Part shown: positions 9,516-60,920 of the stretch, in pieces | Layout of the letters: each line of letters begins with the position of its first letter | Position numbering within the stretch: position 1 is the first letter of the stretch | DNA from: an uncultured Planctomycetota bacterium | GTDB lineage: Bacteria; Planctomycetota; Planctomycetia; Isosphaerales; Isosphaeraceae | DNA: 64,000 nucleotides | Direction: 5' to 3' | NCBI GenBank assembly: GCA_963845755.1 | Contig: CAWJTV010000039.1 | Coordinates: 192,001 to 256,000 of the forward strand | Program-made: the position numbers and the translations under genes | Notes under the pieces: model-generated | What the model was told of the DNA's origin: nothing | Seen by the model: only the letters and a program-made list of their open reading frames with translations | Database searches by the model: none

Positions 9516-9541
9516 GTAAATCAAACGACCGTTTGCTTTAC
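9516..9541. repeat. Type-A 26-bp quasi-palindromic site, copy 1
   Basis: GTAAATCAAAC-GACC-GTTTGCTTTAC; related copies at 10095 and 12553. Confidence 0.75.
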
Positions 9542-9555
9542 AAATTGGCGAAATC

Positions 9556-9963
9556 TTATTGGATAGCTCGTGCTCCCCTGGCTGGCGTCCGGATCGCGGG
9601 AGGGGGAGGCGGTGCCGGTCTGCGTGGAGCCGGTGGACCGGGACCAGCCCATGTGCTGACGATTTCATGATGTATGGATAATGAATCACGTTGCGGATCA
9701 GTGCAACGACATTTCCAAGTGCCGGGCCATGGCTGACCGAGGAGGGTTCGCCAATATCGAGGCCAGAACGGCGATTGACAGAATGTGCCGATGCTCGGTG
9801 GATAGCTTTCCCCCGGCGGAGCTTTGAGGGCCCAAGAGTGGTGAAGCCACGAGTGTTGCGGATCGTGTTCGATGCGATATGCCGTGACCGCCATCCATAT
9901 CATGACGGCCGCACCGGGCACCACGAGCATCCACCGCCGAATCGTCATCCTTGGGATTCGCAA
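9556..9963 (-). CDS. Hypothetical membrane-anchored protein
   Basis: TTG start after GGAG; MRIPRMTIRRWMLVV leader followed by a hydrophobic helix; frame of the C-terminus uncertain. Confidence 0.6.
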   Translation of the reverse strand: MRIPRMTIRRWMLVVPGAAVMIWMAVTAYRIEHDPQHSWLHHSWALKAPPGESYPPSIGTFCQSPFWPRYWRTLLGQPWPGTWKCRCTDPQRDSLSIHHEIVSTWAGPGPPAPRRPAPPPPPAIRTPARGARAIQ

Positions 9964-10094
9964 GTTGTCAGCACTCCGTCTGATTTCTTCTGTCCGATGA
10001 TCCCGGCAACCGAGGCCGACAGACCTATGGATGCTACCGACGACTGAGGGTGGCGTCTATCTGAGGGCGATGGCAAGCAAGCCTTGATTCTTGA

Positions 10095-10120
10095 GCAAAC
10101 CAAACGTTCGTTTCCTTTGC
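10095..10120. repeat. Type-A site, copy 2
   Basis: GCAAACCAAAC-GTTC-GTTTCCTTTGC, 20/26 identical to copy 1, with a compensatory change in the outer arms. Confidence 0.6.
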
Positions 10121-10435
10121 GCACATTAGTACAGTAAAATAACCCGTCCGCAAAGGGGGTAACTTTACTCGCTGCTCGCTGTCAATTGGGGTGTCGATGT
10201 TCAGTAGCGGCTATGCCTTACCGATCCGGTCAGTTGGCAGCGAATGGACGTCTCGGGCCTGGTGCGGCATTTGTCGTGGCGCGGTATCATGTGCGGATGA
10301 GGATCACCCGGACTCTGAACGCCTGACGATCGTCGGAGGGATGGCTTACAATTGTCCGATGTGTAAAGGGTGAATATCCCTTTCGTATCAACGAAATCCG
10401 AGGCGTCGTTTCGGAACTTACGTCGAATCCCTAGT

Positions 10436-10466
10436 GTAAAGCCTCATTTAGAACTCAGACTTTCCA
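10436..10466. repeat. Type-B 31-bp site, copy 1 (diverged)
   Basis: GTAAAGCCTCA-TTTAGAAC-TCAGACTTTCC-A, 21/31 identical to copy 3. Confidence 0.55.
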
Positions 10467-10522
10467 ACTTCACGACCGGCCTGTCGCCTGGGCTCATTGA
10501 TTCAGACGAGCGAGGTGCTTGC

Positions 10523-11062
10523 GTGGAGAAGCGCACATGGGCCTCTGTCACGGGCGATCCGTGTAGTTGCGGGTTCCTGGAACGAGCCGCAGATGACCCG
10601 AACCTGCCCATCCGATTTGACCCATTGGTGGGCGAGTACCACTTTGAATTCCCCAGTCCGTGCGCCGGGGAGGCCTGCCCTGAAGCCAAGGCGCAGCTCA
10701 CGATCTACCACTGCCCGTTCTGCGGAGGCGCCGCCCCGCCCTCCAAGAGGGATACCCTGTTCACTAACATCTCGGACCAGGACGCGGCGCGGCTGTACCG
10801 GCTGTTCGAGGGGATGGACACGCTTGAAGAAGTGGTCCGTGCTCTGGGGCCGCCGGACGATGACATGGAGCGGGGACTGACGGTGAGGGAACCGGAGAAG
10901 GAGGGCAAGCCTCCGACATTACGGACCTATCGGACCCTGCGCTACACTCGGCTATCGGACAATGCCGATGTTGAGGCATATGCCGATCCGGCCAAGGGCA
11001 ACGTACAGGTCGCGCTGGTGGGCAAGTACATCGGGCCGCCCATCGAACAAGCGCCAGACTAA
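10523..11062 (+). CDS. Hypothetical Cys-rich protein (DUF6980-like IYHCPFCG motif)
   Basis: GTG start after GAGG; CSC...IYHCPFCGG; C-terminal EEVVRALGPPD segment. Confidence 0.65.
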   Translation: MEKRTWASVTGDPCSCGFLERAADDPNLPIRFDPLVGEYHFEFPSPCAGEACPEAKAQLTIYHCPFCGGAAPPSKRDTLFTNISDQDAARLYRLFEGMDTLEEVVRALGPPDDDMERGLTVREPEKEGKPPTLRTYRTLRYTRLSDNADVEAYADPAKGNVQVALVGKYIGPPIEQAPD

Positions 11063-11096
11063 CGGGCTCCCCAGCAACCCGTCCACCACGAGGGAC

Positions 11097-11127
11097 GGAA
11101 ACGGTGATTCATAGTTGAGACTTACCA
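11097..11127. repeat. Type-B site, copy 2
   Basis: GGAAACGGTGA-TTCATAGT-TGAGACTTACC-A, 28/31 identical to copy 3. Confidence 0.85.
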
Positions 11128-11244
11128 CCGGGCTCCGGTCCGGCCACGAAGCGCAAGCGGTGATCCAGAAACGAGGCTTGACAGCCTCCTGGCTATACGA
11201 TTGCTTCGGGTGAAGTTCAAGGTGCGGCGGAGGCATGGAACGCA

Positions 11245-12135
11245 ATGATGGACGACTCGGGGATGATTGTGGCCCAGTGGCTCTACGCGTCAGTCGAGCA
11301 TTTCGACGAGACGAAAGACCGGCCAAAAGGGATTAGCGGCATCCTGGCCATCGATCCCGATGGAGGCGATTGGCGGTTGGTCGCTGAGCGTAGGCGGATA
11401 AGCAATCTGCGGCTCACTCGTGATGGGGAGACTCTCGCGTTCCTGGAGGACCAGCCGGACCCGAACCTCTGGATTCTCGGCCGTCAATTCGGCTCTGTAC
11501 CCAAGCTGGTGACCCGTCTTATCGGGTTTGCCTCCTTCGTCTGGTCGAGCACGGGCGAGGAGTTCTTCGTCACTCTCAGAGGTCCGGCTGCCCGCCAGGC
11601 AGGTCGGGAAGGGGCCTGGCGCGTCGATACGAGCGGCTCGAATTGGAGACGACTCCTCCTCCAAGAGAGCGAACGGGTTCAAGATTGCTCGCCGGACGGC
11701 CAATGGCTTCTGACCAGTTCCTTCGGCTCCCCGAGGATCAAGATCGTCCGCCCAGACGAGACCGACTTGCGAGACCTGACCGGGCCGGGAGAGAAATGCA
11801 TTCGACCGCGCTTCTCGCCGGATGGGAGCCGCATCGTCTATGCGTCGCCGACAGACCACGGCGAGTCGCTCTGGGTGTTGGATTTGGGCAGGTGGGAACG
11901 CCGGCTGCTCCGGCCCGAATCCCAGGTCACGATCGTGGCGTCTTGGTCACCGGACGGCTCGCGGCTCGCGCTGAAATTGGTGGATTGCGTCTATGACGAT
12001 CGCGGTAAGCTGACGGTACCGAGCAACGACCTATCTCGGATGAGGCCACGGATCGAGATCATGGACGCGGACGGGGGTGGCCGCCGTCCGCTCAATCTGC
12101 CGCCAGGCAGGATTCTCCTCGGAGATTGGCGCTGA
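11245..12135 (+). CDS. TolB-like (PD40) beta-propeller protein
   Basis: Repeated CSPDGQWL, FSPDGSRIVY and WSPDGSRLA motifs. Confidence 0.8.
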   Translation: MMDDSGMIVAQWLYASVEHFDETKDRPKGISGILAIDPDGGDWRLVAERRRISNLRLTRDGETLAFLEDQPDPNLWILGRQFGSVPKLVTRLIGFASFVWSSTGEEFFVTLRGPAARQAGREGAWRVDTSGSNWRRLLLQESERVQDCSPDGQWLLTSSFGSPRIKIVRPDETDLRDLTGPGEKCIRPRFSPDGSRIVYASPTDHGESLWVLDLGRWERRLLRPESQVTIVASWSPDGSRLALKLVDCVYDDRGKLTVPSNDLSRMRPRIEIMDADGGGRRPLNLPPGRILLGDWR

Positions 12136-12144
12136 GTGACAAGT

Positions 12145-12175
12145 AGAAAGGGTGATTCATAGTTGAGACTTTCCA
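12145..12175. repeat. Type-B site, copy 3
   Basis: AGAAAGGGTGA-TTCATAGT-TGAGACTTTCC-A fills most of the 50-bp gap between two genes. Confidence 0.85.
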
Positions 12176-12185
12176 GGAGCGAGCC

Positions 12186-12494
12186 ATGCGACTACCCCGC
12201 GTGAGGTGTACCCTGCGGTCGATCATGATCGCACTGGGGATCTTGGCCTTGCTCCTGGGAACGGAACGGCTTCTGTTTCATTATGCGGTGAGCCTGGTGG
12301 CATCACATAATGATTATCTCTGGAACGAGGCGGTAACCGTCTGGGTGACCCTGAACATCGCGCTGTCTCTCCCCATCGGGCTGTCAGCCGCCATTGTCCG
12401 GGCCGCAACGAAAGACCAGGCCGAGGCACGTAGAGCGCATCGGGTGAACCATAGGTCACCCTTTCCATTCCCGGCGGCGACTCGGCCGCGCTGA
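12186..12494 (+). CDS. Small two-helix membrane protein
   Basis: AGGAG RBS; MRLPRVRCTLRSIMIA leader; two hydrophobic segments. Confidence 0.65.
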   Translation: MRLPRVRCTLRSIMIALGILALLLGTERLLFHYAVSLVASHNDYLWNEAVTVWVTLNIALSLPIGLSAAIVRAATKDQAEARRAHRVNHRSPFPFPAATRPR

Positions 12495-12552
12495 GGTCGA
12501 GGAGCTGACACCCCCGCGTAGCTCCTATCCGCATGACCACCTCTGCTCGGTG

Positions 12553-12578
12553 GTAAATCAAACGAGGGTTTACCTTAC
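12553..12578. repeat. Type-A site, copy 3
   Basis: GTAAATCAAAC-GAGG-GTTTACCTTAC, 22/26 identical to copy 1; similarity extends into the following A-AT-GG. Confidence 0.75.
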
Positions 12579-13033
12579 ATATGGGCCGCCGCCCACGCCG
12601 GGTCGGTTTTCCCCGGCTCTTGGTGTAAAGCAATTCGGTAAAGAAATCAAAGTAAGTATCCACGAAGCTACGACGGGTTTCTTGACTATTGCAATGGCGG
12701 GGGGCAGGGCGTGAGCTGGCGGAACGGATGAAGCTGCGGGCGAGCGGTCGCTGAACGTCGCCATTGCGGCAGAATGTGAATTTCGATGGACTGAGCTGCC
12801 GTCGATCACGCAGTCTGGCGTCACATTCCGGACGAATCGGCACTCTTGTGATACCGATCGGGAAATCAGAGCCATCTTCGATCGTCTGGAGGGAGCCACC
12901 CGAGCTGTCGTCGATCCTGGCCTCTCCTTCTGAAGCGCATGTCTCAGACCGTTTCATCTTTTGTCTTGTTCTCAACAAGGCGATAGACTCACAAATCAGC
13001 GTCTCCTTCGCCTTTTGATCACGCTCGAGGAGG

Positions 13034-13661
13034 ATGGTAGGGCATCCTCCTCGAGCTTTCCCTTGGGAGCAGTACCTCCCGTGGGCGCCGGTCAGGGTAC
13101 GCCAAAGCACGGCACTTCGGCCAGAGGGCGCCGACCGCGCCCGCGGATTTGTTTCCGCAAGGGGTGTGGACGCAAGTATCAGCCCCGCCGCTGGAACCAG
13201 CGCTACTGCCAGGACCCGCAATGTCAGCGGGAGGTCCACCGCTGGCAGGCAGCGCGCCGGCAAGCCCGACATCGCCAGCACGCCCAGGCCAGAGCCCAGC
13301 ATGCCCAGGCGGAAAAAGCGCGCCGTCAGCGAGCGAAGTCTGCGTCCCAGACCATTGAGAGCTCAGAAGTTACGCCGGCGCGTGGTCACGCAGCAGAAGA
13401 TTTTTTTCTCCGCCGTTATGCGATCGGCCGGGCTGCCATGAGCACCCCGTGAGCTCGCCCCGCAACCCCGCCCGCTACTGCGGCCCTGCCTGCCGGCAGG
13501 CCGTTCGCAATGTCCAGGACCGGGAACGCAAGTGGCTTTCCCGCGGCACCTCGGATGGGCGGAAGAAGCGCGCCATCGAGTACCAGGCCGCACGAAGGCG
13601 CCGCATCGTTCGATCAGGCCATCTCACCAACTCGGCACCATCGCGACCACCTCCCCAATGA
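13034..13661 (+). CDS. IS accessory protein with two Cys4 zinc-finger-like units (-1 frameshift at T7; start uncertain)
   Basis: CFRKGC...RYCQDPQC in one frame and CDRPGC...RYCGPAC in the -1 frame, each followed by an Arg-rich helix. Confidence 0.6.
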
Positions 13662-13756
13662 CGGTCCTCCCCAGGCGGCGCCGGTCGTCACTTATCGCGT
13701 GGCCATCCGCCGCGCTGGTTTGCTGGAGCCGGTGGTTTTCCCTCAGGAGTTCCAGC

Positions 13757-14166
13757 ATGCCTGCGACACCCATCCTCGTCCCCGCGCGACTGCGGCGTCC
13801 CCCCAGACCGGTTGGTCCTGGGTCGACCGTCGCTTCGTGCGCGAGCACGCCGCGCACCTCTCCCGCGACGCCGTGCTGCTGTACTTCACCCTCTGTGCCG
13901 TGGCCGACAAGCACGGGTTGTCGTTCTATGGCGACGCCACCATGGCCGCCATGGTGCGGATGAACTTGCCGGCCCTGATGGCCGCCCGTGAGGAATTGCT
14001 CGCCCGCGATCTCATCGCCCATGAGACGCGTTTCACTCAGGTGCTCTCCCTGCCGCCAGCCGGCCAACGCCGCGGTGAGTCCGGCGGAGGACTGATGTCT
14101 CTGGGCGAGATCTTGCGCCAGGCCGCCGCACTCCCTCAGCTCGACGACGAAAGGAGCCTGCCATGA
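13757..14166 (+). CDS. IS accessory winged-HTH-like protein (frameshift near 13800)
   Basis: AGGAG RBS; MPATPILVPARLRRPP joins GWSWVDRRFVRE...LLYFTLCAVADKHGLSFYGD...LIAH; stop overlaps the istA start (ATGA). Confidence 0.65.
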
Positions 14167-15674
14167 ACGTCGGTTTGTGGGCGGAGATCCGCCGCCTGGC
14201 CGAGATCGACAAGCTCTCCACCCGGGCCATTGCGCGACGACTCCACTGCGCCCGGCGGACCGTGACCGCGGCCCTCCAGCGGGATCATCCCTCGCGCCCC
14301 CCCGTGCACGCCGCGCCAGTCTTTTGGACCCGTACAAGGCCAAGATCAACGCCTTGGTGGAAAAGTGTCCCGAACTCTCGGCGGTGCGAATCCGCGAGGA
14401 GATCGCCCGCGGGCCCGACGGTTATACCGGCAGTACGATCCTCGTGCGTCGCTATCTCCGGACCATCCGCCCGGCTCGCGGACGGATCTACCAGGAGGTC
14501 CATTACGAGCCGGCCCAGGCCATGCAGGTGGACTGGGGCGAGTGCGGTCACGTCCAACTCGGGACCACGACCCGCAAGGTCTCGGTCTTCGTGGCCGTGC
14601 TCTGCTACAGCCGCCTGATGTTCATCGAGTTCACGCTGTCGCAGCGCAAGGCCGAGTTCTATCGCGGCGTGGTGCACGCCCTGGAGTTCTTCGGCGGCAG
14701 TCCCCGCGCCCTGATCGTCAACAACTTGAAAGCCGCCGTCCTCAACGGCTCGGGCCGCACCGCCTGTTTCCATCCCGAGTTCCTGGCGCTGTGCGGTCAC
14801 TTCTGCCTGCAGCCGATCGCTTGCGAACGACGCGACCCGGAATCCAAAGGGATCGTCGAGGGGGCCGTGCGCGTACGTCAAGCACAACGCCTTGGCCGGC
14901 CGTGGGGCGGAGCTGACGGGCTTCGAGGACTACCTGGCTCTGGCACCACTGTGGCGTGACCAGGTGGCCAACGTGCGGCTCCATGAGACGACCAAAGAGC
15001 GGCCGGTCGATCGCTTCCTGCGTGAGCGCCCGCGGCTGCGCCCGTTGCCGGCGATCCCGTTGGACACCGACGAGGTCGTGGCCGCGGTCGTCAGTCCCCA
15101 TGCGCGGGTCGAGTTCGACGGCAACCGCTATTCGACACCGCCGAAGTTCGCTCGCCGGGCGGTCACGATCCGCGCCGACCGCGACGCGGTCCGCGTCCTC
15201 CACGAGGGTCAGGTGCTGACCCAGCATGTCCGTTGCTACCAGCGGGGACAGTTGATGGTCCGGCCGGACCATCGCACTGCCGCGCTGGCCCTGGGCCGTC
15301 GGGCTCGGAGCACCGCGCTGGAACAGACGTTTGACGCGTTGGGGCCCGAGGCACGCCAGTTCCACCTCGGCCTGCGGCGTCAGCCGATCAAGACCGGCGT
15401 TCACCTGCGTCGCTTACTCGGCCTGGCCCAACTCTACGGGGCCACCGAACTGCTCTCCGCCATCGCGGAGGCCCTGGAACTGGCGATCTACGATGCTGCG
15501 GCGGTCGAGAACCTCCTGTTGGCCCAACGGCGACGGCGGCAACTCCCGACCCCCACGTTGCCCACGCCCCGGCGGCGCGAATTGATCGATGAGATCGAAC
15601 TGGAACCGGCCGATCCCAGCTTCTACGATCGCTTCTGCACTCACACCGCGGAGGACGCTCATGGCACGACGTGA
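14163..15674 (+). CDS. istA: IS21 transposase IstA (two frameshifts)
   Basis: N-terminal HTH, QAMQVDWG, LCYSR, (D/N)NLKAAV, PESKGIVE, VEFDGNRYS motifs. Confidence 0.92.
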
Positions 15675-16431
15675 GGACAATCTCCAGACCCGATTGGACC
15701 GCGATCTGGCCGAATTGAAGTTGCCCGAGATCGCCAAAGCCTACCGCGAAGTGCTGGATGACGCCGCGCGCAAGGGGAGCTCGATGCTGGAAGTCCTGGC
15801 GACTCTGATCGGCCTGGAGCAAGCCGCCCGTCAGCAACGCGCCCTCCAGCGGCGGCTGTGCGAGGCCCGGCTGCCCAAGTTGAAAACCCTGGCCGAATAT
15901 GATTTCACCTTTCCCAAGCGGATTCCCAAGGCAACGATCCTGCGGTTGTTCGACTGCGACTTCATCCCCCGCCATGGCTGCGCCGTGCTGATCGGCCCGA
16001 CCGGAACCGGAAAGTCGCATCTCCTCACGGCGTTGGGTTACACGGCGGCCGAGCGCGGCTACTCGGTCCGCCATACACGGGTCGTGGACATGATCAATCA
16101 TCTCACCACGGCCCAGATCAACGGTCTGCTGGGCAAGGCGCTCAAGACCTACGTCCGTCCCAGTCTGCTCCTGCTCGATGAGCTGGGCTATCTGCCCATC
16201 GACAAGCGCGGGGCCGATCTGTTGTTCCAGGTGGTCGCGGCCCGTTATGAATCCGGATCGATCGTCCTATCGACGAATCGACCCTTCCGGGAATGGGGCG
16301 CCCTGTTCGACGTGGACAACACCCTGGCCACGGCCTTGATCGACCGGCTGATGCATCACGGGGAGGCACTGGTGATTCAAGGAGATAGCTATCGGATGAG
16401 AGACAAAGATTCTGATTCGACCAGCGCGTGA
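15661..16431 (+). CDS. istB: IS21 helper AAA+ ATPase IstB
   Basis: Walker A GPTGTGKSHL, Walker B LLLLDELGY, STNRPF, ALIDRLMHH, GDSYR. Confidence 0.95.
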   Translation: MARREDNLQTRLDRDLAELKLPEIAKAYREVLDDAARKGSSMLEVLATLIGLEQAARQQRALQRRLCEARLPKLKTLAEYDFTFPKRIPKATILRLFDCDFIPRHGCAVLIGPTGTGKSHLLTALGYTAAERGYSVRHTRVVDMINHLTTAQINGLLGKALKTYVRPSLLLLDELGYLPIDKRGADLLFQVVAARYESGSIVLSTNRPFREWGALFDVDNTLATALIDRLMHHGEALVIQGDSYRMRDKDSDSTSA

Positions 16432-18399: not shown

Positions 18400-19843
18400 A
18401 TGAACTCGATTCCACAATCCGAAACCGCTGCCTTGGTCATCGGCGCCGGTCCCGTCGGACTGACGATGGCCTGCGAACTGCTCCGTTACGGCATTCCCTG
18501 CCTTGTCATCGAACAGAATGAGGGGCCTCATCGACGTCTTGAAGTCGCGTGGTGGTGCGGTCGAATGGCGAACGCATCTGACCGGCCTCCAGGGCGATGA
18601 ATGTGTCCGCGCAACGCTTAGCGGTCCGGACGGGACGGAGCAAACCGTGCGCACACGCTGGCTCATCGGGTGCGACGGGGCACGGAGTACCGTTCGCCAC
18701 GAGTTGAACCTCCCGTTCCAGGGAGCGGAGTACGAGGAGACCTTCTATTTGGCCGATGTCCGGATCGACTGGGAGCAGCCCGACGACGAGGCCACAGTGA
18801 TCCTCGACAAGGAAATCCAGGTCGGCGCCTTCCCGCTACCGGAGCCGGGGCGCTGGCGACTCGTTGACGCGCGCGCGACGATCGGTACTGATGATCCTCC
18901 GCTGGCCGTCGAGCGCCTCCAAGGCCTGCTCAACTCCCACGGATTCCCGAACGCTCGCGTCAGCGACCCGGTCTGGGTCTCGTCCTTTCGCATTCACCGC
19001 CGCGTCGTCGATCGGTTTCGCGTCGGGAGCTGCCTGGTAGCCGGAGACGCGGCGCACATCCATAGCCCCGCGGGAGGGCAGGGCATGAACACCGGCATTC
19101 AGGAGGCGTGCAATCTCGCCTGGAAGCTCGGATTGGTTCACGCCGGCGTGGCGCGCGACCCCGAAGGGTTGCTGGATTCCTACGACGCCGAGCGGCGACC
19201 GATCGCCTTGGACGTCCTGCGGGGGACCGATCTGGCCACGCGAGCCGTCACCCTGCGCAATCCTTTGCTGGAATCACTCCGCAATCGACTCGCGTCGTTC
19301 CTGAGCGAATTCGATTTCGTCCGGCAACGGGTTTCGGTGGGAATCTCTGAGCTTGGGGTCAACTACCGAAGGAGCCCTATCGTCGCCGAGGACCGCCCCG
19401 GCGCCATGGGCCTTCACGCCTTTCCCGGCCCCCGGGCCGGCGATCGCGTCCCCGATGTCGCACTCGACCCGGCGGCGAACGATGGTACGGCGCGGCTGTT
19501 CGACCGCCTGCGGGGCACGGGCCACCACCTTCTGCTCTTCGAGGGGGACCGTCCCTCGGCGGACGTCCATGAGAAGCTCGGCGCCCTGGCGCGGCAGGTC
19601 TGCGACCGCGCGGGCGCGTGGATCGAGCCACAGCTCGTGATCGGCGCGGCAAGCAGGCCGGCGTCGCTCTCCTGGGATGGCCGAGTCGTTCTGGACGTCG
19701 ACCGGTCCCTCCATCACCGCTTCGGCGCCGGTGCAGCTTGTCTGTACCTCACGCGTCCGGACGGCTATGTCGGCTACCGGAGCGAGGCCGTCGACGCGGA
19801 ACGGCTCTGGGCGTACCTCGATCGAATCTTCGTCACGGGTTGA
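18400..19843 (+). pseudogene. FAD-dependent monooxygenase (FAD_binding_3) with apparent internal deletion and frameshift
   Basis: VIGAGPVG, IGCDGARSTVR, AGDAAHIHSPAGGQGMNTG, RPDGYV motifs; the segment normally following ..IEQNEG is missing. Confidence 0.75.
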
Positions 19844-19908
19844 GGAAGTCCATACACACCCACTGTCCTGCGGCGTGGTCACCCGCGCCGATTCTCAGGT
19901 CGTCGCTG

Positions 19909-21088
19909 TCAAATGTCCGGGCTTTCCCCTTCGGCGGTGGCCTGAACGGCTGGGTGTGGCTCGGATCGCACGATGCGAATCCCGATCTTCCTCGCGCGAC
20001 CTCGGCGTCTTCCTCCTTGCGGATGAAATACACCTCGGTGGTGCGGATATCGCTGTGGCCGGCGAATTCGCGCACTTCGAGCATCGTCGCGCCATTGCGG
20101 ATGGCGTCGTTGATGGCCGTCTTGCATAAGCTATGGATGCCGATGCCGCGGCTACCCAGCCGCCTGGGATCGATGCCCGCCGCCTCGCAGTATTTCTTGA
20201 CCAGCCGCCAGGGAGTCTTGCGGTCGAGGTGCCGCCGCACCAAGCCGCTGCTGTCCGGCGTCATCGGCCGGAAGAGGGTTCCCTCCCGGTCATCCTTGAT
20301 ACCGGCCTGCGCGACGTAGGCCAGGACCGGCCGGGCGGCGTCGAGCAGGATTTTCCGTCGCTTACGGTTCCGCTTCTCGGTGACATGGAGGTAGTGATCG
20401 ACACCGTCGGTCTCCAGGTGGTCGAACGCAGGCTCCGGTGACCGCCGACACCCGGCACCCCGTCAAAAAGAACACGCTCAACATCGCCAGGTCGCGGATG
20501 CCTTGCAGTGTGTCGGTCGGGATGGCCTCCAGCAGGGCCACGGCCTGCTTCTGGGTGAGGGAAGGGGTGGAGTTCTTCTGAACGCCGGCGGCCTTGACGG
20601 CGGCAATGTCCTGGGCGCTCTCCCAGGAAATCAGCCCCTTGGCGGCGAGTTGCTGGTAGGCACCGCGGAGTACGGACAGGCGTCGGGCGATGGTGGCGGT
20701 GGTCATGCCGGCTTCGTGCAGGGCTCGTTTATAAAACTTCACATGATCGGCGGTGACGATTAAGGGTGCCACCCCCTGGGCCTGTATCTGCCGGAAAAAT
20801 TCCGTAAGGTCGCGATGGTACGCCTTGACCGAGTGATTCGACGGTAGCGCGTCGCAGATCCAGGGCACCAGGGCGGCGGTCAGAGCCTGCCCCGCATTGG
20901 TTGAGGGGGTCACTTCCGGTGGCTTCCAGGGCGCGGGCGAGGAAGGCTTGGACTTTGTCCGCGGCCGGGGCGTCGCCCTCGAGGAAGTCGCTGCGCTCCG
21001 GCACGAGGGGAGGGCGGCGCGGTGCCGCCTCGGCCTGCGGTAAGGGGAGGGTCGGGAGCGTGGGTGAGGGGATGGAGTCCATGGGCAT
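19909..21088 (-). pseudogene. Tyrosine recombinase (XerD-like), frameshifted, HxxR reads HSLC
   Basis: SAM-like N-terminal domain (TIARRLSVLR), RDLAML...TGCRVSAV, HSLCKT...AGHSDIRTTEVY. Confidence 0.82.
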
Positions 21089-31301: not shown

Positions 31302-34300
31302 ATGTCGCGCATCCGTCTGAGTTTCGCCCAGCGTCGCCGTCGTGCCTTGATGGTCAGGCCGATCCTCCTCAGTTTGGAAGCGCGAAACGCGGTTACGCCC
31401 ATGGGAGCGGCCTCGCTTGGCCTTGGAACGCTTGGCGTCATGCATGCAAACGGGGGGGGGTAGTGCTCTGATCCGATCCGCCTCCGGCATTGCGGCGAGT
31501 TCTCCGGCGGGAGGGAGGAACCTGCTCGATGGTGCCCAGCGGCAGACCCTCGACTCAGCCCGCGATCGATGGGCCACGCGGATCGCCGACGGCGCGCCAG
31601 GAAGCCAGGGCTCGGGGGGTGTTCTTCCGGACGTCCCGGCGATCGCGAGTCCGAAGGTGAGTGGATCCTCAACGGCCGATGACGCCACAAACCTCAGCGG
31701 AATGCTCGGCAAAGGCTCCGATCGGCCTGCGCAGCCCACCGGTATCTCGGCGCCGTGGAAGCCGGATCAGCGCGGTTGGGTGCCGGCGGCGGCGCCTTGC
31801 CACCGCGCGGTGGGTCGGGGAGCATCGCGGCGGGGGTCGCCCTCGCCACGGCGAAATCGGCCGCAACGACCCGTCCCGCGGCAGCCAACCCCACCTCAGC
31901 CGGCTCCTCGGCAGCCTCCTCGGCGCTGCTCTCCACGCTCGGGCTCAACTCCGTCACCTCGCAGGCAGTGACGACCGTCAGCCGCAACGCCCTGGCCACC
32001 GCTCTCAACAGCCCTGGCGGAGCCGGCACGATCCAACCCCCGAGCAATCCCGGACCACTTACGCCGTCCCCGGCCTTCACGCTCCTGACCCTCGATTACA
32101 ACCACGGCACGGTTATGGTGCCCGGCTTCGACCAGCTCGCCACACCCGGCGGCGCCGTGGACCTGCGCGCCCAGGTCGTCGAACTCGGCCTCCGGCACCT
32201 ACACCTATTCCTGGAACACCTCCGGCCTGACCAGCGCCAGCGGCATCAGCGGGAGCAGCTCCTACGACCTCACGTTCCACTGGGCCACTTCGATCAGCAC
32301 ATCCCAGGCTGAATCCGCGACCCTCACCGTCACGGACCCGAGCAGCAACCAGGTCAGCCAGACATACACCTTCTGGGTGCCCGCCGGCTCCGGCTCGACG
32401 ACCGGGGGCACGACCTGGCCCTCGTCGCTCGACCCGGGCGCCATCGCGGCCAGTTCCCCCGCCGTTTCCAGCGGCAACGTCTCGGTCGTCTCGGCCACGG
32501 GCGCCCTGATGACCTCGATCGATATGCCCAGTTACAACCCCAATGTCCCCGCGCTCTCGCTGGTCTACAACTCCCTGGCCGCCAACGCGATGCCGATCGT
32601 GGTCGCCGAGCATCCGCTCAGCGCCAGCCTGGCCACGCCCTCAAAGGTCTCGGCGCAATTGACGTTCGACGGCACAGCCCTGACGACCTACTATTACAAC
32701 ACCTCATCGCTGACGCCCGGCGACATCATGCAGATTGGCCTCCAGGCCACCAACACCACCAGCCTGGACTCGGGCAGCTACCCCTACACGATGACCGTCG
32801 CCGACGACCGCAGTGGCTCCTGGACGACGGTCACCTACAACGGCACGGCCACGGTCGAGAATGCGGCTAAAGATCCAACCTTCTCCGCCCTCGGCGCCGG
32901 CTGGACAGTCAACGGGCTGACGAAGATCATCCCGGGCACCGGTGGCGTGCTCCTGGATGAAGGGGGCGGCTCGGTCCTGTGGTACTCCGGGAGCTTCGGC
33001 AGCGGCGGCGGGACCTACACCAGCCCGGCCGGCGATTTCAGCACCCTGGTCCTCAACAGCAACGGCACCTGGACGCGGACCCTCACCGACGGCACCAAGC
33101 AGAACTTCGCCGCGACCACCGGCCTGGAGACGACCAGCGTCAACCGCAACGGCCTGACCACGACGTTCACCTATTCCGGTAACCTCCTGACCAAGATCAC
33201 TGACCCGTTCAGCCAGGTCACCTCGTTCACCTACAGCGCCGGCGATCTCCAATCGATCAAGGACCCGGCGAACCGCCTGACAACCTTCACCATCTCGAGT
33301 GGCAAGCTCACCGCCGTCGAATATCCCGACACCAGCACCTGGGATTACGGCTACGATTCCGCCAAGCGGATGACCAGCGTAACCGAGCCATCGTCGGCCG
33401 GTGAGCCGACCAAGATCACCACGATTACGTACGATGCCGCCGAACGAGTGGGTACGGTAACGCGGGCCGACAGCACGACGGAGGAGTTCTCGGCCGGCCA
33501 GGAGCAGGGCTGGACCAACAGCGGCACATCGAGCAGCCCGGCGCCGGCGACCTTGCTGGCCCAGGTGGGCTCGACCCACACCGACCCGCTGAGCAACGTG
33601 ACCACGTCGCGCCCCGATTGGTATGGCCTGGGCCAGACCAGCCAGACGACCGACGCGCTGAGCAACGTCACGACGGTTGACCTCAATTCCAACGGCCTGG
33701 CCACTGTTACCATCGACCCGATGAACCGGATCACCCAGGATGCCTATGATTCCAAGGGGAATGTCACCGAAATCACCAACCCCGACGGGACCACGGTCAC
33801 CTACGGTACGTACAACAGCTTCGCCGAGCCGTCGACGATGACCAACGAGCTGGGCAAGACGACGTCCTACACCTACGATTCCCACGGAAACGAAACGGTC
33901 ATCGAAGATCCGATGACCTACTTGACGACGATGACCTACACGTCCAACGGCGAGGTGTCGACATCCATCGACGCAAACAACAAAACGACTACGTATCAAT
34001 ACGACAGTCTGGACCGGCTCACGACCACGACGTTCCCTGACGGCACGACCAACGTGAATTCGTACAATTCCCAGGGAAACGTGACCCAGGCCACTGACGG
34101 CCGGAGCAATTCGACGACCTACGCCTACGACGCCATGAATCGCGAAACGGGCATGACCAATGCCCTGAGTGGCCACACCACGTACCAGTACGACGCGGCC
34201 GGCAACCAGACCGCCGTCACCGATCCGCTGGGTAACACGACCACCAATGTCTACGACGCGATGGACCGGCTCACGACCGCGACGACCCCGTTGGGTTACA

Positions 34301-36985
34301 ACACCGTTTACGGCTACGACGCCGACGGCAACCAGACCTCGGTCAAGGACCCCCTCGCGCGGATCACCACAACCGTATACGATGCGCTGAACCGCCCGAC
34401 CGTCGTCATCGACCCCATGAGCGGGCACACCACGACGACCTACGACGCCGACGGTGAGGTCATCCAGGAGAAGGACGCCCTGGGCCGGATCACGACGACC
34501 AGCTACGACGCACGGGGCCGGGTCGCCACGACAACTGACCCGCTCGGCAACACGACGACCTATTCGTACACGTCGACCGGCCAGCAAGCCACCGTGACGA
34601 CCGAGACCCAGAGCGGCGGCACAGCGACCACAACGCACACGTACAATGCCGACGACCGGCTCGTCTCCACCACGGATCCGCTCTCGAACATCACCACATA
34701 CGGCTACGACGGCGTCGGCAACCAGAAGACCGTGGAAGATCCCGACGCGAATACGACCACGACCGTTTACGATTCGCGAAACCGGGTGATCGAGACGATC
34801 GAGCCACTCGGAGTGACGGTCAGCTATACTTACGACAACTCGGGCAACCAGCAGACGGTTACCGATGCTCTGGGCCACACGACGACGACGCTGTACGACG
34901 CTCTCGACCGCGCCACGACGACGATCAGCGCCGTAGACGGCACGACCACAACGACCTACGATGCCGACGGCCATGAAACCAGCACGACCGACCCGGTGGG
35001 CAACAAGACCCAGTGGGCCTATGACGCCGACGGCCGCATGACAACCCAGACCAATCCCAACGGCTCGACGGTGACCAACACCTACGACTCAGACAATGAG
35101 CTGACGGACACTACCGATGCCGACGGCCGCCGCACGACCTACTCGTACAACGCCGATGGCGACCAGTCGGGCGCGACCTGGGTCGGCACCACTCCATCCG
35201 AGATCATTACTTTCACCTACGATGCCGAAAACGAGTTGACCGGCGCCGCCGACAGCTTCGCCACGCTGACGTTCACCTACAACGGCGGCGAATTGCAAAC
35301 TGCGGCTACCTCCGGCCCAGGCTCCGGCCAGCCCAGCGTCCTGCTCTCCTACACCTACGACCCCGCGGGGAACGAGACCAGCGTCACGGACAACCTGTCG
35401 AGCCAGGGTGTCACGTCCTTCACCTATAACGCGGGCGAACAGGTCACGGGGATCGCGGCTTCCTACGGCGGCACGACCATCCCGCAGGTCAGTTACACCT
35501 ACGAGCCGAACGGCCAGATTGCCACCGAGTCGCGGATGATCAGCGGCTCGGGCAACCAGGTGAACACCGCCTACAGCTACGATTCCGTCGATCGCCAAAC
35601 GACGATCAGCGATACGCGCTATGGCCTGGTTCCGGGATTCGGCTCGACCCCCATCGGCACGTATGTCTACGCCTACGACCAGGCAAGTCGCGTGACGAGC
35701 GAGACCGACAAGGAGGGCACGGCCACGTTCACCTACGATAATGCCAACGAGCTGACGGCCGTCGGCGGCTCGCGGACCGAGTCGTACAGCTACGATGCCA
35801 ACGGCAACCGGACCGGGACCGGCTACACGACGGGGACAGAGAATGAGATGACCAACTCGCCGGGGAATACTTACACCTACGACAGCGCGGGTAATCTGGT
35901 CTCGGACAACAACGGCACCACGATCACGACGTACACCTACGACTATGAGAACCGCTTGACAGGGGTGAAGGTCGGCGGTACGATTGTGGCAACATATACC
36001 TATGATGCGCCTGGGCCGGCGGATCGACGTCGATGACAGCGGATCGCAGACCTGGACTGTCTACGACGGCACCGGCGCCGATGCCAACACGTACGCGGAC
36101 TTCACCAGTTCCGGCAGCTTGGGTGAGCGCTACCTCTTCGGTCCGACGATGGTGGACGGCGCGGTGACGCCGGGTATCCTGGGTCGGACCAGCTCGGGCG
36201 GGACGACCGCCTGGTACCTGACCGACAAGTTGGGCACCGTACGCGACGTCGACAGCACGTCGGGAACCAACCTCGACCACATCGTCTACGACAGCTTCGG
36301 CAACATCGTCACGGAGACCAACGCGACCAACGGCGACCGGTTCAAGTTCGCGGGGATGGAATACGATGCCACGACAGGGCAGAGCTACGACCGGGCGCGC
36401 TATTACGACGAGGCGATCGGGAGGTTCATGGCACAGGATCCGATGGGGTTTCAGGCGGGTGATGAGGATCTCTACCGCTACGTTGGGAACGGGCCTACAG
36501 ACGCCACGGATCCGAGCGGTCTCATAAAGGTTGAGATAGGCGCGATCACACGCCCTGCCAAGAATCTACCGCCGGGTTATGGCGTTGTAAGGGTTGATTA
36601 TCGTATTACAGACAACTATGATCCTGATCTCTTAACTGTCGTCTGGCTAAACGCAAAAGCAGTCTGGACGTCGGCAGCTGGCAAGACTCTCGACGCGCTC
36701 GATACGGTCTTATATGTAAAGATCGCCACGCAGAAAGTGTACAGAGGTTTCTTCTGGGAGGTCTTCCCGTCATCCTTTTGGGAGGGCCCTCGGCTCCCCA
36801 ATGTGAAGGTGGAGGCCGTGGAGCAGGACCGGAGTGGACTTGGGGTAGTTACCATGCCCTCCGCATCGGACCAAACGAATGTACCTCCTCCCGGAGCGTT
36901 CCCACCACCGACTCCACCAAAGCCTATAACACCGAGGCCTGTGCCAGTTGGACCGCCGGGCCCTGGCCCCATTAGACTGGGTTAA
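31302..36985 (+). CDS. RHS/YD-repeat protein with variable C-terminal tip (several frameshifts)
   Basis: LEARN leader; dozens of YD repeats; core end YDSFG...RYYD...GRFMAQDP...LYRYVGNGPTDATDPSG; tip 36521-36985. Confidence 0.9.
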
Positions 36986-60184: not shown

Positions 60185-60511
60185 TCAGAATGGCATATCG
60201 AAGGAATAGTGGATGGCTTCCCACACCTCGTTCATCCGATCCGATGAGAGGGATGTGAGGTAATGGACCAGCAAGTCTTGATCGATCGTTGCGATGTTGT
60301 CGAGCGTGACGGCACTGCGGGTTGGTACGCCATCGTCCGGCTCGAGGACGACCTCCGAGTCGAGCCCCCGGATCGTCCGCGTTAGCGGCGCGACTGTCGC
60401 ATAGTGGAGCTTGGGCACGGCATCGTCGCGGGTCAGAATCAAGACAGGACGCCATCCCAGCGGATCGGGGAGATTGGCCCACCACACCTGTCCTTGAGCT
60501 TTATCGACCAT
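60185..60511 (-). CDS. PemK/MazF-family toxin
   Basis: GQVWWA.L....RPVLIL...VAPLT...SEV...S.V.LDNI.TI. Confidence 0.88.
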   Translation of the reverse strand: MVDKAQGQVWWANLPDPLGWRPVLILTRDDAVPKLHYATVAPLTRTIRGLDSEVVLEPDDGVPTRSAVTLDNIATIDQDLLVHYLTSLSSDRMNEVWEAIHYSFDMPF

Positions 60512-60719
60512 CGGGAGGATTCCATTCCGCAAAGTCTTCCGTGGACCATACCTGGGGGAGGAGGCTCCGCGTGGTCTCGACCCAGGACGACGGCTCGCTT
60601 TCCAGTGCGTTGAGGTAGGAGAGCATCGCTTCCTCGACGACTTCCGAGAGGGGCTGCGAGCGCTTTTGAGCGATCGCCTGGAGGCGACGCTCCAATTCCG
60701 GCTTGAGTTCTACGTTCAT
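60501..60719 (-). CDS. Ribbon-helix-helix antitoxin
   Basis: MNVELKPELERRLQAIA...LSEVVEEAM..YL, acidic tail; overlaps the toxin start. Confidence 0.8.
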   Translation of the reverse strand: MNVELKPELERRLQAIAQKRSQPLSEVVEEAMLSYLNALESEPSSWVETTRSLLPQVWSTEDFAEWNPPDGR

Positions 60720-60920
60720 GATCGTCTCCCCGCCGCTTTTCTGACAGGGCAAGCCCTCCGCTGCCACCCGCTCGACACAGCCGCGGTCTTCCAGCGTCGA
60801 TGTCTTGAATGTCCGTTCATTCACCAGGGTGAGACTATGCAAATCCGGTCCCGCCTGTCAATCGGCCCTGCGGTCCACGGGGTGATCCGATCGGCGGCAA
60901 TGGGCTTTGCTCGGTGGCCA

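Follow-up and report, generated by a model that had tools for sequence, protein, structure and literature searches.

A gene-cassette array in a planctomycete genome, with exchange at the centre of 30-bp palindromic sites and a small serine recombinase as the likely enzyme

The systems for capturing gene cassettes in arrays that we found described in print, namely integrons and dif modules, use tyrosine recombinases. Serine recombinases of the resolvase type are known to act at two-site res regions, such as the 86-base-pair (bp) resH of Sin (PMC2428073) and the 114-bp res of Tn3 (PMC2602789), and the nearest precedent for the chemistry discussed here is the exchange at res site I of Tn3-family transposons (PMC7157771). 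The locus under study occupies positions 9516 to 12578 of a 64,000-nucleotide stretch, called the window below, of contig CAWJTV010000039.1 from an uncultured planctomycete of the family Isosphaeraceae. It contains small unrelated genes punctuated by short palindromic sites of two kinds, A and B, which an earlier note, made from the letters alone, had taken for a non-integron cassette array. The computational analysis reported here indicates that this is probably an orphaned cassette array, whose B-site neighbours were exchanged at the site centre. The enzyme responsible is likely a small serine recombinase of the resolvase type, predicted to cut the cassettes out and to insert them anew.

The sites listed in the earlier note (A1 to A3, B1 to B3 and the spacing variants at 10150 and 10363) were all found where it had placed them. 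Its list of B sites was right as to B1, B2 and B3 and incomplete, with two others overlooked. The window holds five B sites, each of 30 bp and all on the forward strand: B1 (10436..10465), B2 (11097..11126), a site at 11153..11182 that sits 56 bp after B2, B3 (12145..12174) and a terminal site at 12437..12466, the right half of which resembles an inverted left-type half. A weight matrix seeded on B1 to B3 and iterated detected, at a cut-off of at least 17 bits, 72 B sites in the window's own genome (an assembly of 14.3 Mb, 88% complete) versus 2 in a block-shuffled copy used as control. These sites form 16 clusters of 2 to 10 sites each, mostly co-oriented, and the clusters are rows of unrelated genes running in one direction with one gene per interval, which bears out the expectation that the sites recur between variable single genes. 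Every B site is built of two 14-bp halves flanking a 2-bp centre at positions 15-16. Among 331 distinct sites, drawn from the window's genome, 58 regions of relatives and 11 further loci, the centre is AG in 157 and AT in 126; in the window, B1 (centre at 10450-10451) and the site at 11153 are AG-centred, while B2, B3 and the terminal site carry AT. Below, C-numbers denote contigs of the window's genome, L-numbers loci from other genomes and P-numbers database proteins.

The point of exchange was located with one site pair from each of 21 independent families that share one flank only. Mismatches amounted to 11 of 63 at positions 12-14, 2 of 42 at positions 15-16 and 33 of 63 at positions 17-19, and the centre was identical in 19 of the 21 cases, against 0.37 by chance. 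The same step is seen from both sides in all 363 site pairs, which are mostly leader pairs and not independent of each other. Shared DNA thus breaks at the central 2 bp, and AT sites, too, act as exchange points. A matching 2-bp overlap is a signature of serine recombinases, and this is the grammar of the B sites, not that of attC or dif. The earlier note had seen no E. coli dif consensus, and the sites are unlike dif in form as well: exchange in a 30-bp site is confined to 2 bp, as against the 28-bp arrangement of 11+6+11 with its 6-bp overlap (PMC12907356). A tyrosine-recombinase reading as 11+8+11 was likewise rejected, because positions 12-14 follow the left flank and positions 17-19 the right.

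A survey of 73 arrays, with open reading frames (ORFs) from a simple gene caller, yielded 237 segments between neighbouring sites: 92 AG-gene-AT segments, 49 in which an AT site is joined by a 57-bp linker to an AG site, 25 AG-gene-AG, 23 AT-gene-AT, 16 AT-gene-AG and 32 others. The usual repeat unit is therefore an AG site, a gene, an AT site with its 57-bp linker, and the next AG site, where the AT site, the linker and the AG site make up a paired unit of 87 bp. Such pairs include 50 of the 126 AT sites and 76 of the 135 AG-type sites outside leaders, and arrays contain up to 14 sites. The weak matches of the B matrix include a third family of 30-bp palindromes, starting in TGAATT and ending in TTTCA, which may serve another recombinase (C24:110390, C17:10545, C33:41846, C20:335156, C1:199960, C41:247313 and C3:54535).

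The window itself follows this layout. Cassette gene 1 (10523..11062, forward) encodes 179 amino acids (aa) with a weak DUF6980 match below the cut-off, and is followed by B2, the first of a 56-bp pair with the AG-centred crossover site at 11153. Cassette gene 2 (11245..12135, forward) encodes a WD40-type protein of 296 aa, a TolB/PD40 beta-propeller. Cassette gene 3 (12186..12494, forward) encodes 102 hydrophobic aa of no known family, and its ORF runs through the terminal B site. Four genes had been described as each bounded by sites; the sites are present, and given the B site at 12437 the fourth gene lies between B3 and that site instead of reaching A3. The DNA to the right of the terminal site is common to C6 and C12 from 12445-12451 on. 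Packing is as tight as had been claimed, with B3 9 and 11 bp from its neighbouring genes and A1 14 bp from a stop codon.

The cargo is diverse and mobile. In 74 of the 81 AG-AT segments with a called gene, that gene is co-oriented with the sites, and out of 177 cargo segments shorter than 2.5 kb, 118 contain a single called ORF, 29 contain two or more and 30 have none. The 108 cargo proteins fall into 85 clusters; Pfam matches were obtained for 19 of them, including LRR, WD40, ankyrin and SMI1/KNR4 proteins and peptidases, and for none of the other 89. Many cargo genes (e.g. L035:11605-11982) appear by eye to have the basic-then-hydrophobic start typical of these planctomycetes, which hints at membrane or exported products, although a strict motif for such starts caught just 7 of the 108.

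Among 196 segments from different genomes there are 19 full-length shared pairs with 83-97% identity, and in 15 of these the alignment reaches, give or take a few bases, both ends of the shorter segment. One shared cassette is adjacent to the recombinase gene in L194 and lies mid-array in L043. The WD40 cassette of the window differs at 58 positions over about 1 kb from a copy in another context, and it recurs in a 2,576-base contig of the soil run X5 from position 11167 on, the A of the AG centre of the site at 11153. In this contig a leader end precedes the cassette, and at 12165, within B3, the sequence departs from the window, with the 57-bp linker in place of the window's next gene. Cassettes have moved: as had been anticipated, one and the same leader is followed by different cargo in relatives, and a given cargo also turns up at other positions.

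At the head of most B-site clusters stands a conserved leader, some 200 bp long, which runs as far as the centre of the first B site. In the window it spans 10250..10451 on the forward strand, up to the AG centre of B1, and the cluster at 10.1-10.5 kb is, as had been suggested, the platform of the array, with B1 as its attI-like crossover site. There are 14 copies in the window's genome, and matches in at least 27 of 121 genomes of the family, a lower bound since at most six candidates were scored per genome. A promoter-like element lies at the leader start (10262..10290, forward), where two hexamers 16-17 bp apart were recognised by eye in aligned leaders. A left half of a B site (10363..10377, forward), 73 bp before B1 and present at the corresponding place in 42 of 67 leader sites, is likely an accessory site. 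The leader-site pattern was found in 5 of 61 genomes of the family and in 1 of 190 others, a rate outside the family like that of a reversed control.

The last site of several arrays is an inverted AG site, with the 3' terminus of a gene for a small serine recombinase directly behind it. These enzymes form a clade (P0001-P0040) of about 40 database proteins with at least 72% identity, the intact copies of which are mostly 200-224 aa long and consist of a PF00239 catalytic domain and an HTH_7 domain (PF02796). All 10 aligned proteins, the A-type enzyme described below among them, have the RVS and DRLGR catalytic motifs without variation, and the closest solved structures are those of DNA invertases and of Tn3/gamma-delta resolvases. 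An AG site is found at a fixed distance behind the gene in 10 of the 11 clade loci that include the 3' end, the exception being L199, where other DNA has been inserted, and in none of 24 more distant relatives. The gene ends on a degenerate B site, which is followed 57 bp later by the AG site and then by cassettes (L264, L189, L194, L266 and L267, with an intact gene in the first two), and the DNA behind the gene-end AG site diverges straight after the AG. Because of this fixed linkage of gene and site, the small serine recombinase likely acts on the B sites. In addition, a single 30-bp palindrome resembling B lies upstream of the gene start in several distant relatives, which points to recognition of such sites by the family.

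A co-occurring recombinase gene, which the earlier note had predicted, is therefore present in the form of this clade. That note had the recombinase acting in trans, which is needed for orphaned arrays only, since an intact element carries its own enzyme. Its picture of an integron- or pdif-like capture with another site grammar is supported, with the refinement that a small serine recombinase is the likely enzyme, in place of a tyrosine recombinase similar to Xer or IntI. Plasmid records contained no match to the small enzyme at E<=1e-30, and outside the family only relatives of 53-57% identity were found, in 4 of 400 genomes of the phylum, none with the downstream site.

The arrays can be part of a larger element. 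Left-end and right-end motifs delimit 10 distinct elements of 2.7-13.5 kb, with a CA dinucleotide at the left end of 9 and at all right ends, the right end being the region upstream of the small recombinase gene. A gene for a large serine recombinase (Resolvase, Recombinase and Zn-ribbon domains), or remnants of it, lies upstream of 8 of the 73 leaders, in 4 of them at a fixed 373-379 bp. A complete element would thus comprise the left end, a small ORF, the large recombinase gene, the leader, the arrays, the inward-facing small recombinase gene and the right end. In L265 the two recombinase genes face each other across the array, and C48:17091-23882 has a left end, a large recombinase gene frameshifted near its start, a leader, B sites, a 5' remnant of the small-enzyme gene and a right end. 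Movement of the element as a whole is likely the work of the large serine recombinase. In an empty-target look-up for two elements, one relative had the flanking genes about 0.7 kb apart, and no exact empty junction was found. The leader and array of the window have lost both recombinase genes and sit between A sites, which belong to a second resolvase. A 110-bp palindromic repeat resembling repetitive extragenic palindromes (REP) occurs at C5:375050-375160 and about 70 other places, with copies up to 96% identical, and one copy lies directly outside the left end of the C48 element.

The A sites of the window are 26 bp long and were not assigned a strand: A1 (9516..9541), A2 (10095..10120) and A3 (12553..12578). 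A2 and A3 are the left and right boundaries of a block that encloses the leader and the array. The ends of this block recur on C6 (98% and 84% identity) and C12 (93%), and the identity to the C6 copy begins inside A2. About 130 bp beyond A3 the C6 copy has an intact gene for a 193-aa A-type resolvase (C6:46091-46672). The window retains the region upstream of that gene (12579..12687, forward, 84% identical to C6) and lacks the gene itself, in place of which an IS21-family element begins at about 12849. This element (12849-16431) includes IstA pieces and IstB, and over its first 252 bp it matches a copy on C40 at 100% identity. Between A1 and A2 lies a gene on the reverse strand (9556..9963) for a 135-aa protein with a hydrophobic N-terminus and no Pfam or NCBIfam match, likely a module bounded by A sites. 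The 19-bp spacing variant at 10150..10168, also without assigned strand, is about 52 bp from the A2 centre, is partly kept in the C47 copy and is likely an accessory site of the A system.

Genome-wide there are about 15 copies of A, near B clusters or resolvase genes. With a matrix trained on C6, itself one of the 14 loci counted here, an A site of at least 19 bits was found within 1.5 kb in 14 of 17 resolvase loci at 70% identity or more, mostly 100-170 bp before the resolvase start, and in none of 13 loci below 65% identity. A sites are also breakpoints, at positions 12-15, yet without conservation of the centre (at positions 12-13, 25 pairs have an identity of 0.44), which leaves the A mechanism less clear. 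The outer motif that had been reported as common to A and B is present, merely in approximate form in B2, B3 and A3, and a helix SRPT(I/V/L)Y common to the small B-associated and the A-type enzymes may explain it. The proposal that A and B are spacing variants for one enzyme did not hold, since two different recombinase clades accompany them; the two systems are nested. Single genes flanked by A sites follow one another in rows at C47:77564-83337, L032, L041, L085, L232 and L233, and this suggests that the A-type resolvase runs a module system of its own with a variable 4-bp centre.

A mechanism for the B arrays can be proposed from these arrangements. One enzyme dimer would bind each B site, with the AG site as the main crossover site and its upstream partner (the AT site, the gene-end site or the leader half-site at -73) as an accessory site, as in Sin resH. 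Recombination of AG with AG would release a circle with one complete two-site unit, which would re-enter at a platform AG site, either at the head of the array served by the leader promoter or behind the recombinase gene, and the cassettes would be expressed from the leader. Exchange of AT with AT occurs as well. On balance, and with slightly less assurance than the excision and reinsertion of cassettes by the small enzyme, we favour viewing the whole as a 'serine integron', in which a small serine recombinase collects, stores and reorders cassettes at two inward-facing sites with an AG/AT code, a large enzyme transposes the platform, and the A-site resolvase represents a parallel system able to carry arrays.

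Several observations weigh against this reading. In the literature, wild-type Tn3 resolvase performs intramolecular resolution only (PMC2602789), and integration by such an enzyme would thus need relaxed control; site II of Sin is arranged head-to-tail and is catalytically inactive (PMC2428073), unlike the AT sites, which are inverted repeats and points of exchange. Little more than half of the non-leader AG-type sites (the 76 of 135 given above) have a detectable partner at -57, and the putative leader promoter was not called by a sigma-70 scan, which gave 2 matches in the leader versus 1.1 expected and none at the two-hexamer motif. The assembly holds only broken copies of the small enzyme (a 3' part on C29, the 5' remnant on C48 and a fragment on C20), and its arrays may therefore be frozen or served by an unassembled gene, while most of the 58 regions of relatives are devoid of a recombinase gene. 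No excised circle or joint was found in public sequencing runs, which were searched as assembled contigs only and the best of which contained 18% of the query words; a candidate joint of 10299-12432 had just 22 letters on one side and was not used. We had predicted inversions driven by the symmetric AT centre, and gene flips were not enriched at AT sites (3/11 vs 4/13, p=1). In a rival reading with the same enzyme and sites, arrays would grow by exchange of whole elements or plasmids at res-like sites, through formation and resolution of cointegrates as in site I swaps of the Tn3 family, and without free circles. Resolvases favour deletion, swaps of transposon ends at the dinucleotide of res site I are documented (PMC7157771), and there are many elements per genome, as the 14 leaders attest. 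Nevertheless, single cassettes occur with differing neighbours on both sides, so that each move would need two exchanges, and the AT site, linker and AG site behind cassettes fit self-contained units, which makes growth by whole-element exchange rather unlikely.

Other candidates concern the enzyme or the nature of the sites. The large serine recombinase encoded upstream of the leader is a very doubtful candidate for the enzyme of the B sites. Its position speaks for it, as does a weakly supported tree in which the copies linked to leaders group together, but its own ends cross over at CA within other sequences, and the B site has the symmetric 30-bp form of a dimer site for a small recombinase. 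Moreover, the sister elements L091:8643-15329, L092:8641-14133 and L093:8644-18178 have both ends and other cargo (kinase or extracytoplasmic function (ECF) sigma factor genes) with no B site at 17 bits or above, which makes the large enzyme a likely transporter, and it is no longer favoured as the B enzyme. An equally slim chance attaches to a phase-variation invertase of the Hin/Gin/Min or Mpi type that would flip cassettes relative to the leader promoter and collect no genes. The solved structures closest to the small enzyme, which include invertases, would fit, complete elements have their two platform AG sites pointing towards each other, and some genes are inverted; however, most sites are direct repeats with co-oriented genes, and the 85 clusters of cargo move between genomes. 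Least credible of all, and hardly to be expected, is the view that the sites are operators for transcription factors, or else diverged attC sites on which the genome's integron integrase acts. The sites lie near gene starts, and C3:152700-162200 is a true integron, with an intact IntI of 330 aa (485 bits vs a TIGR02249 cut-off of 265) and short attC sites of 57-59 bp. Yet homology breaks at the site centre, an effect that operators do not have, and the canonical attC hairpins of C3 are unlike B. The absence of attC boxes that had been noted was upheld: a heuristic that recovered the C3 attC sites gave a single match in the 110 kb of B arrays, well away from the B sites, and 18 paired B sites fold no better than shuffles (mean z -0.17), on which grounds the reading as attC sites was rejected. 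No B site over 13 bits occurs near the C3 IntI and its attC array. Nor was any tyrosine recombinase gene at a fixed place found in the 58 regions of relatives, and a tyrosine recombinase fragment beside the C4 leader, not repeated in relatives, was dismissed. The array of the C3 integron is not continuous, with a large-serine-recombinase element and an ORF resembling a reverse transcriptase inserted in it.

Elsewhere in the window, a small tyrosine recombinase gene in two pieces, SAM-like and catalytic, lies at 19833-20913 on the reverse strand, with similar genes on C29, C33 and C40. The forward strand at 32377-36985 encodes a 1219-aa RHS-repeat protein, with a second ORF as its continuation, in a region of strong AT skew, and upstream of it, on the opposite strand, is the gene for a 1203-aa Ig-like repeat protein. 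A PemK/MazF-like toxin gene with a small upstream partner (60185-60842, reverse) is likely a toxin-antitoxin pair.

A literature search, which did not reach subscription papers and supplements, found no description of such a system. Small serine recombinases have been treated as markers of defence islands in PMC13552941, the available part of which does not contain the terms 'integron', 'res site' or 'crossover', and such terms appear only in the methods in what was available of bioRxiv 2024.07.02.601686. The B arrays are thus likely a new kind of cassette system, for which a candidate enzyme, a crossover point, a site code and a platform are now defined. If the proposed reading is true, the integron strategy was invented independently by a resolvase-type serine enzyme, in a form invisible to attC-based searches, and the arrays are a reservoir of uncharacterised genes, as most cargo proteins are without a Pfam match. 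It would also provide a compact integrase of 200-220 aa with two naturally orthogonal centres, useful for ordered gene assembly, and it raises the question of how a family of strictly intramolecular resolution was released to integrate.

Compared with integrons and clusters of attC sites lacking integron-integrases (CALINs; PMC8618304), the B arrays are alike in having a platform with an insertion site, which a possible promoter precedes, single-gene cassettes in tandem that lack promoters and are mostly of unknown function, and orphan arrays devoid of the enzyme. They differ in that the linked enzyme is a small serine recombinase and not IntI, in that the B site is a double-stranded 30-bp palindrome with a 2-bp AG/AT centre instead of attC boxes and a hairpin, and in that the enzyme gene points into the array, which has two inward-facing insertion sites. 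The dif/pdif islands of Acinetobacter (PMC12907356) also string gene modules together in linear arrays, separated by short palindromes, but pdif sites are of the form 11+6+11 and serve the host tyrosine recombinases XerC/XerD, whereas B sites are of the form 14+2+14 with a linked serine enzyme and a leader. Serine invertases such as Gin/Hin, Min of p15B and Mpi of Bacteroides fragilis (PMC5903667) are likewise small serine recombinases with several sites, and Mpi acts also in trans; they invert fixed segments, whereas the B arrays consist of unrelated genes in direct repeat that are gained, lost and moved between genomes. With the Sin and Tn3 res systems the B arrays share the PF00239 and PF02796 domains, crossover at the centre of a dimer site and a nearby second site. 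Here, by contrast, there are many tandem units, one per gene, the site lies behind the gene and not before it, both paired sites are inverted repeats and both exchange, and the proposed role is gene collection as opposed to dimer resolution. Two-site systems of the Sin/beta type also depend on HU/IHF and supercoiling and carry out resolution only. Finally, in the exchange at res site I of Tn3-family transposons, passenger genes are similarly gained at the central dinucleotide by a resolvase-type crossover, but each transposon has one res and whole ends are swapped, whereas a B array offers up to 14 sites.

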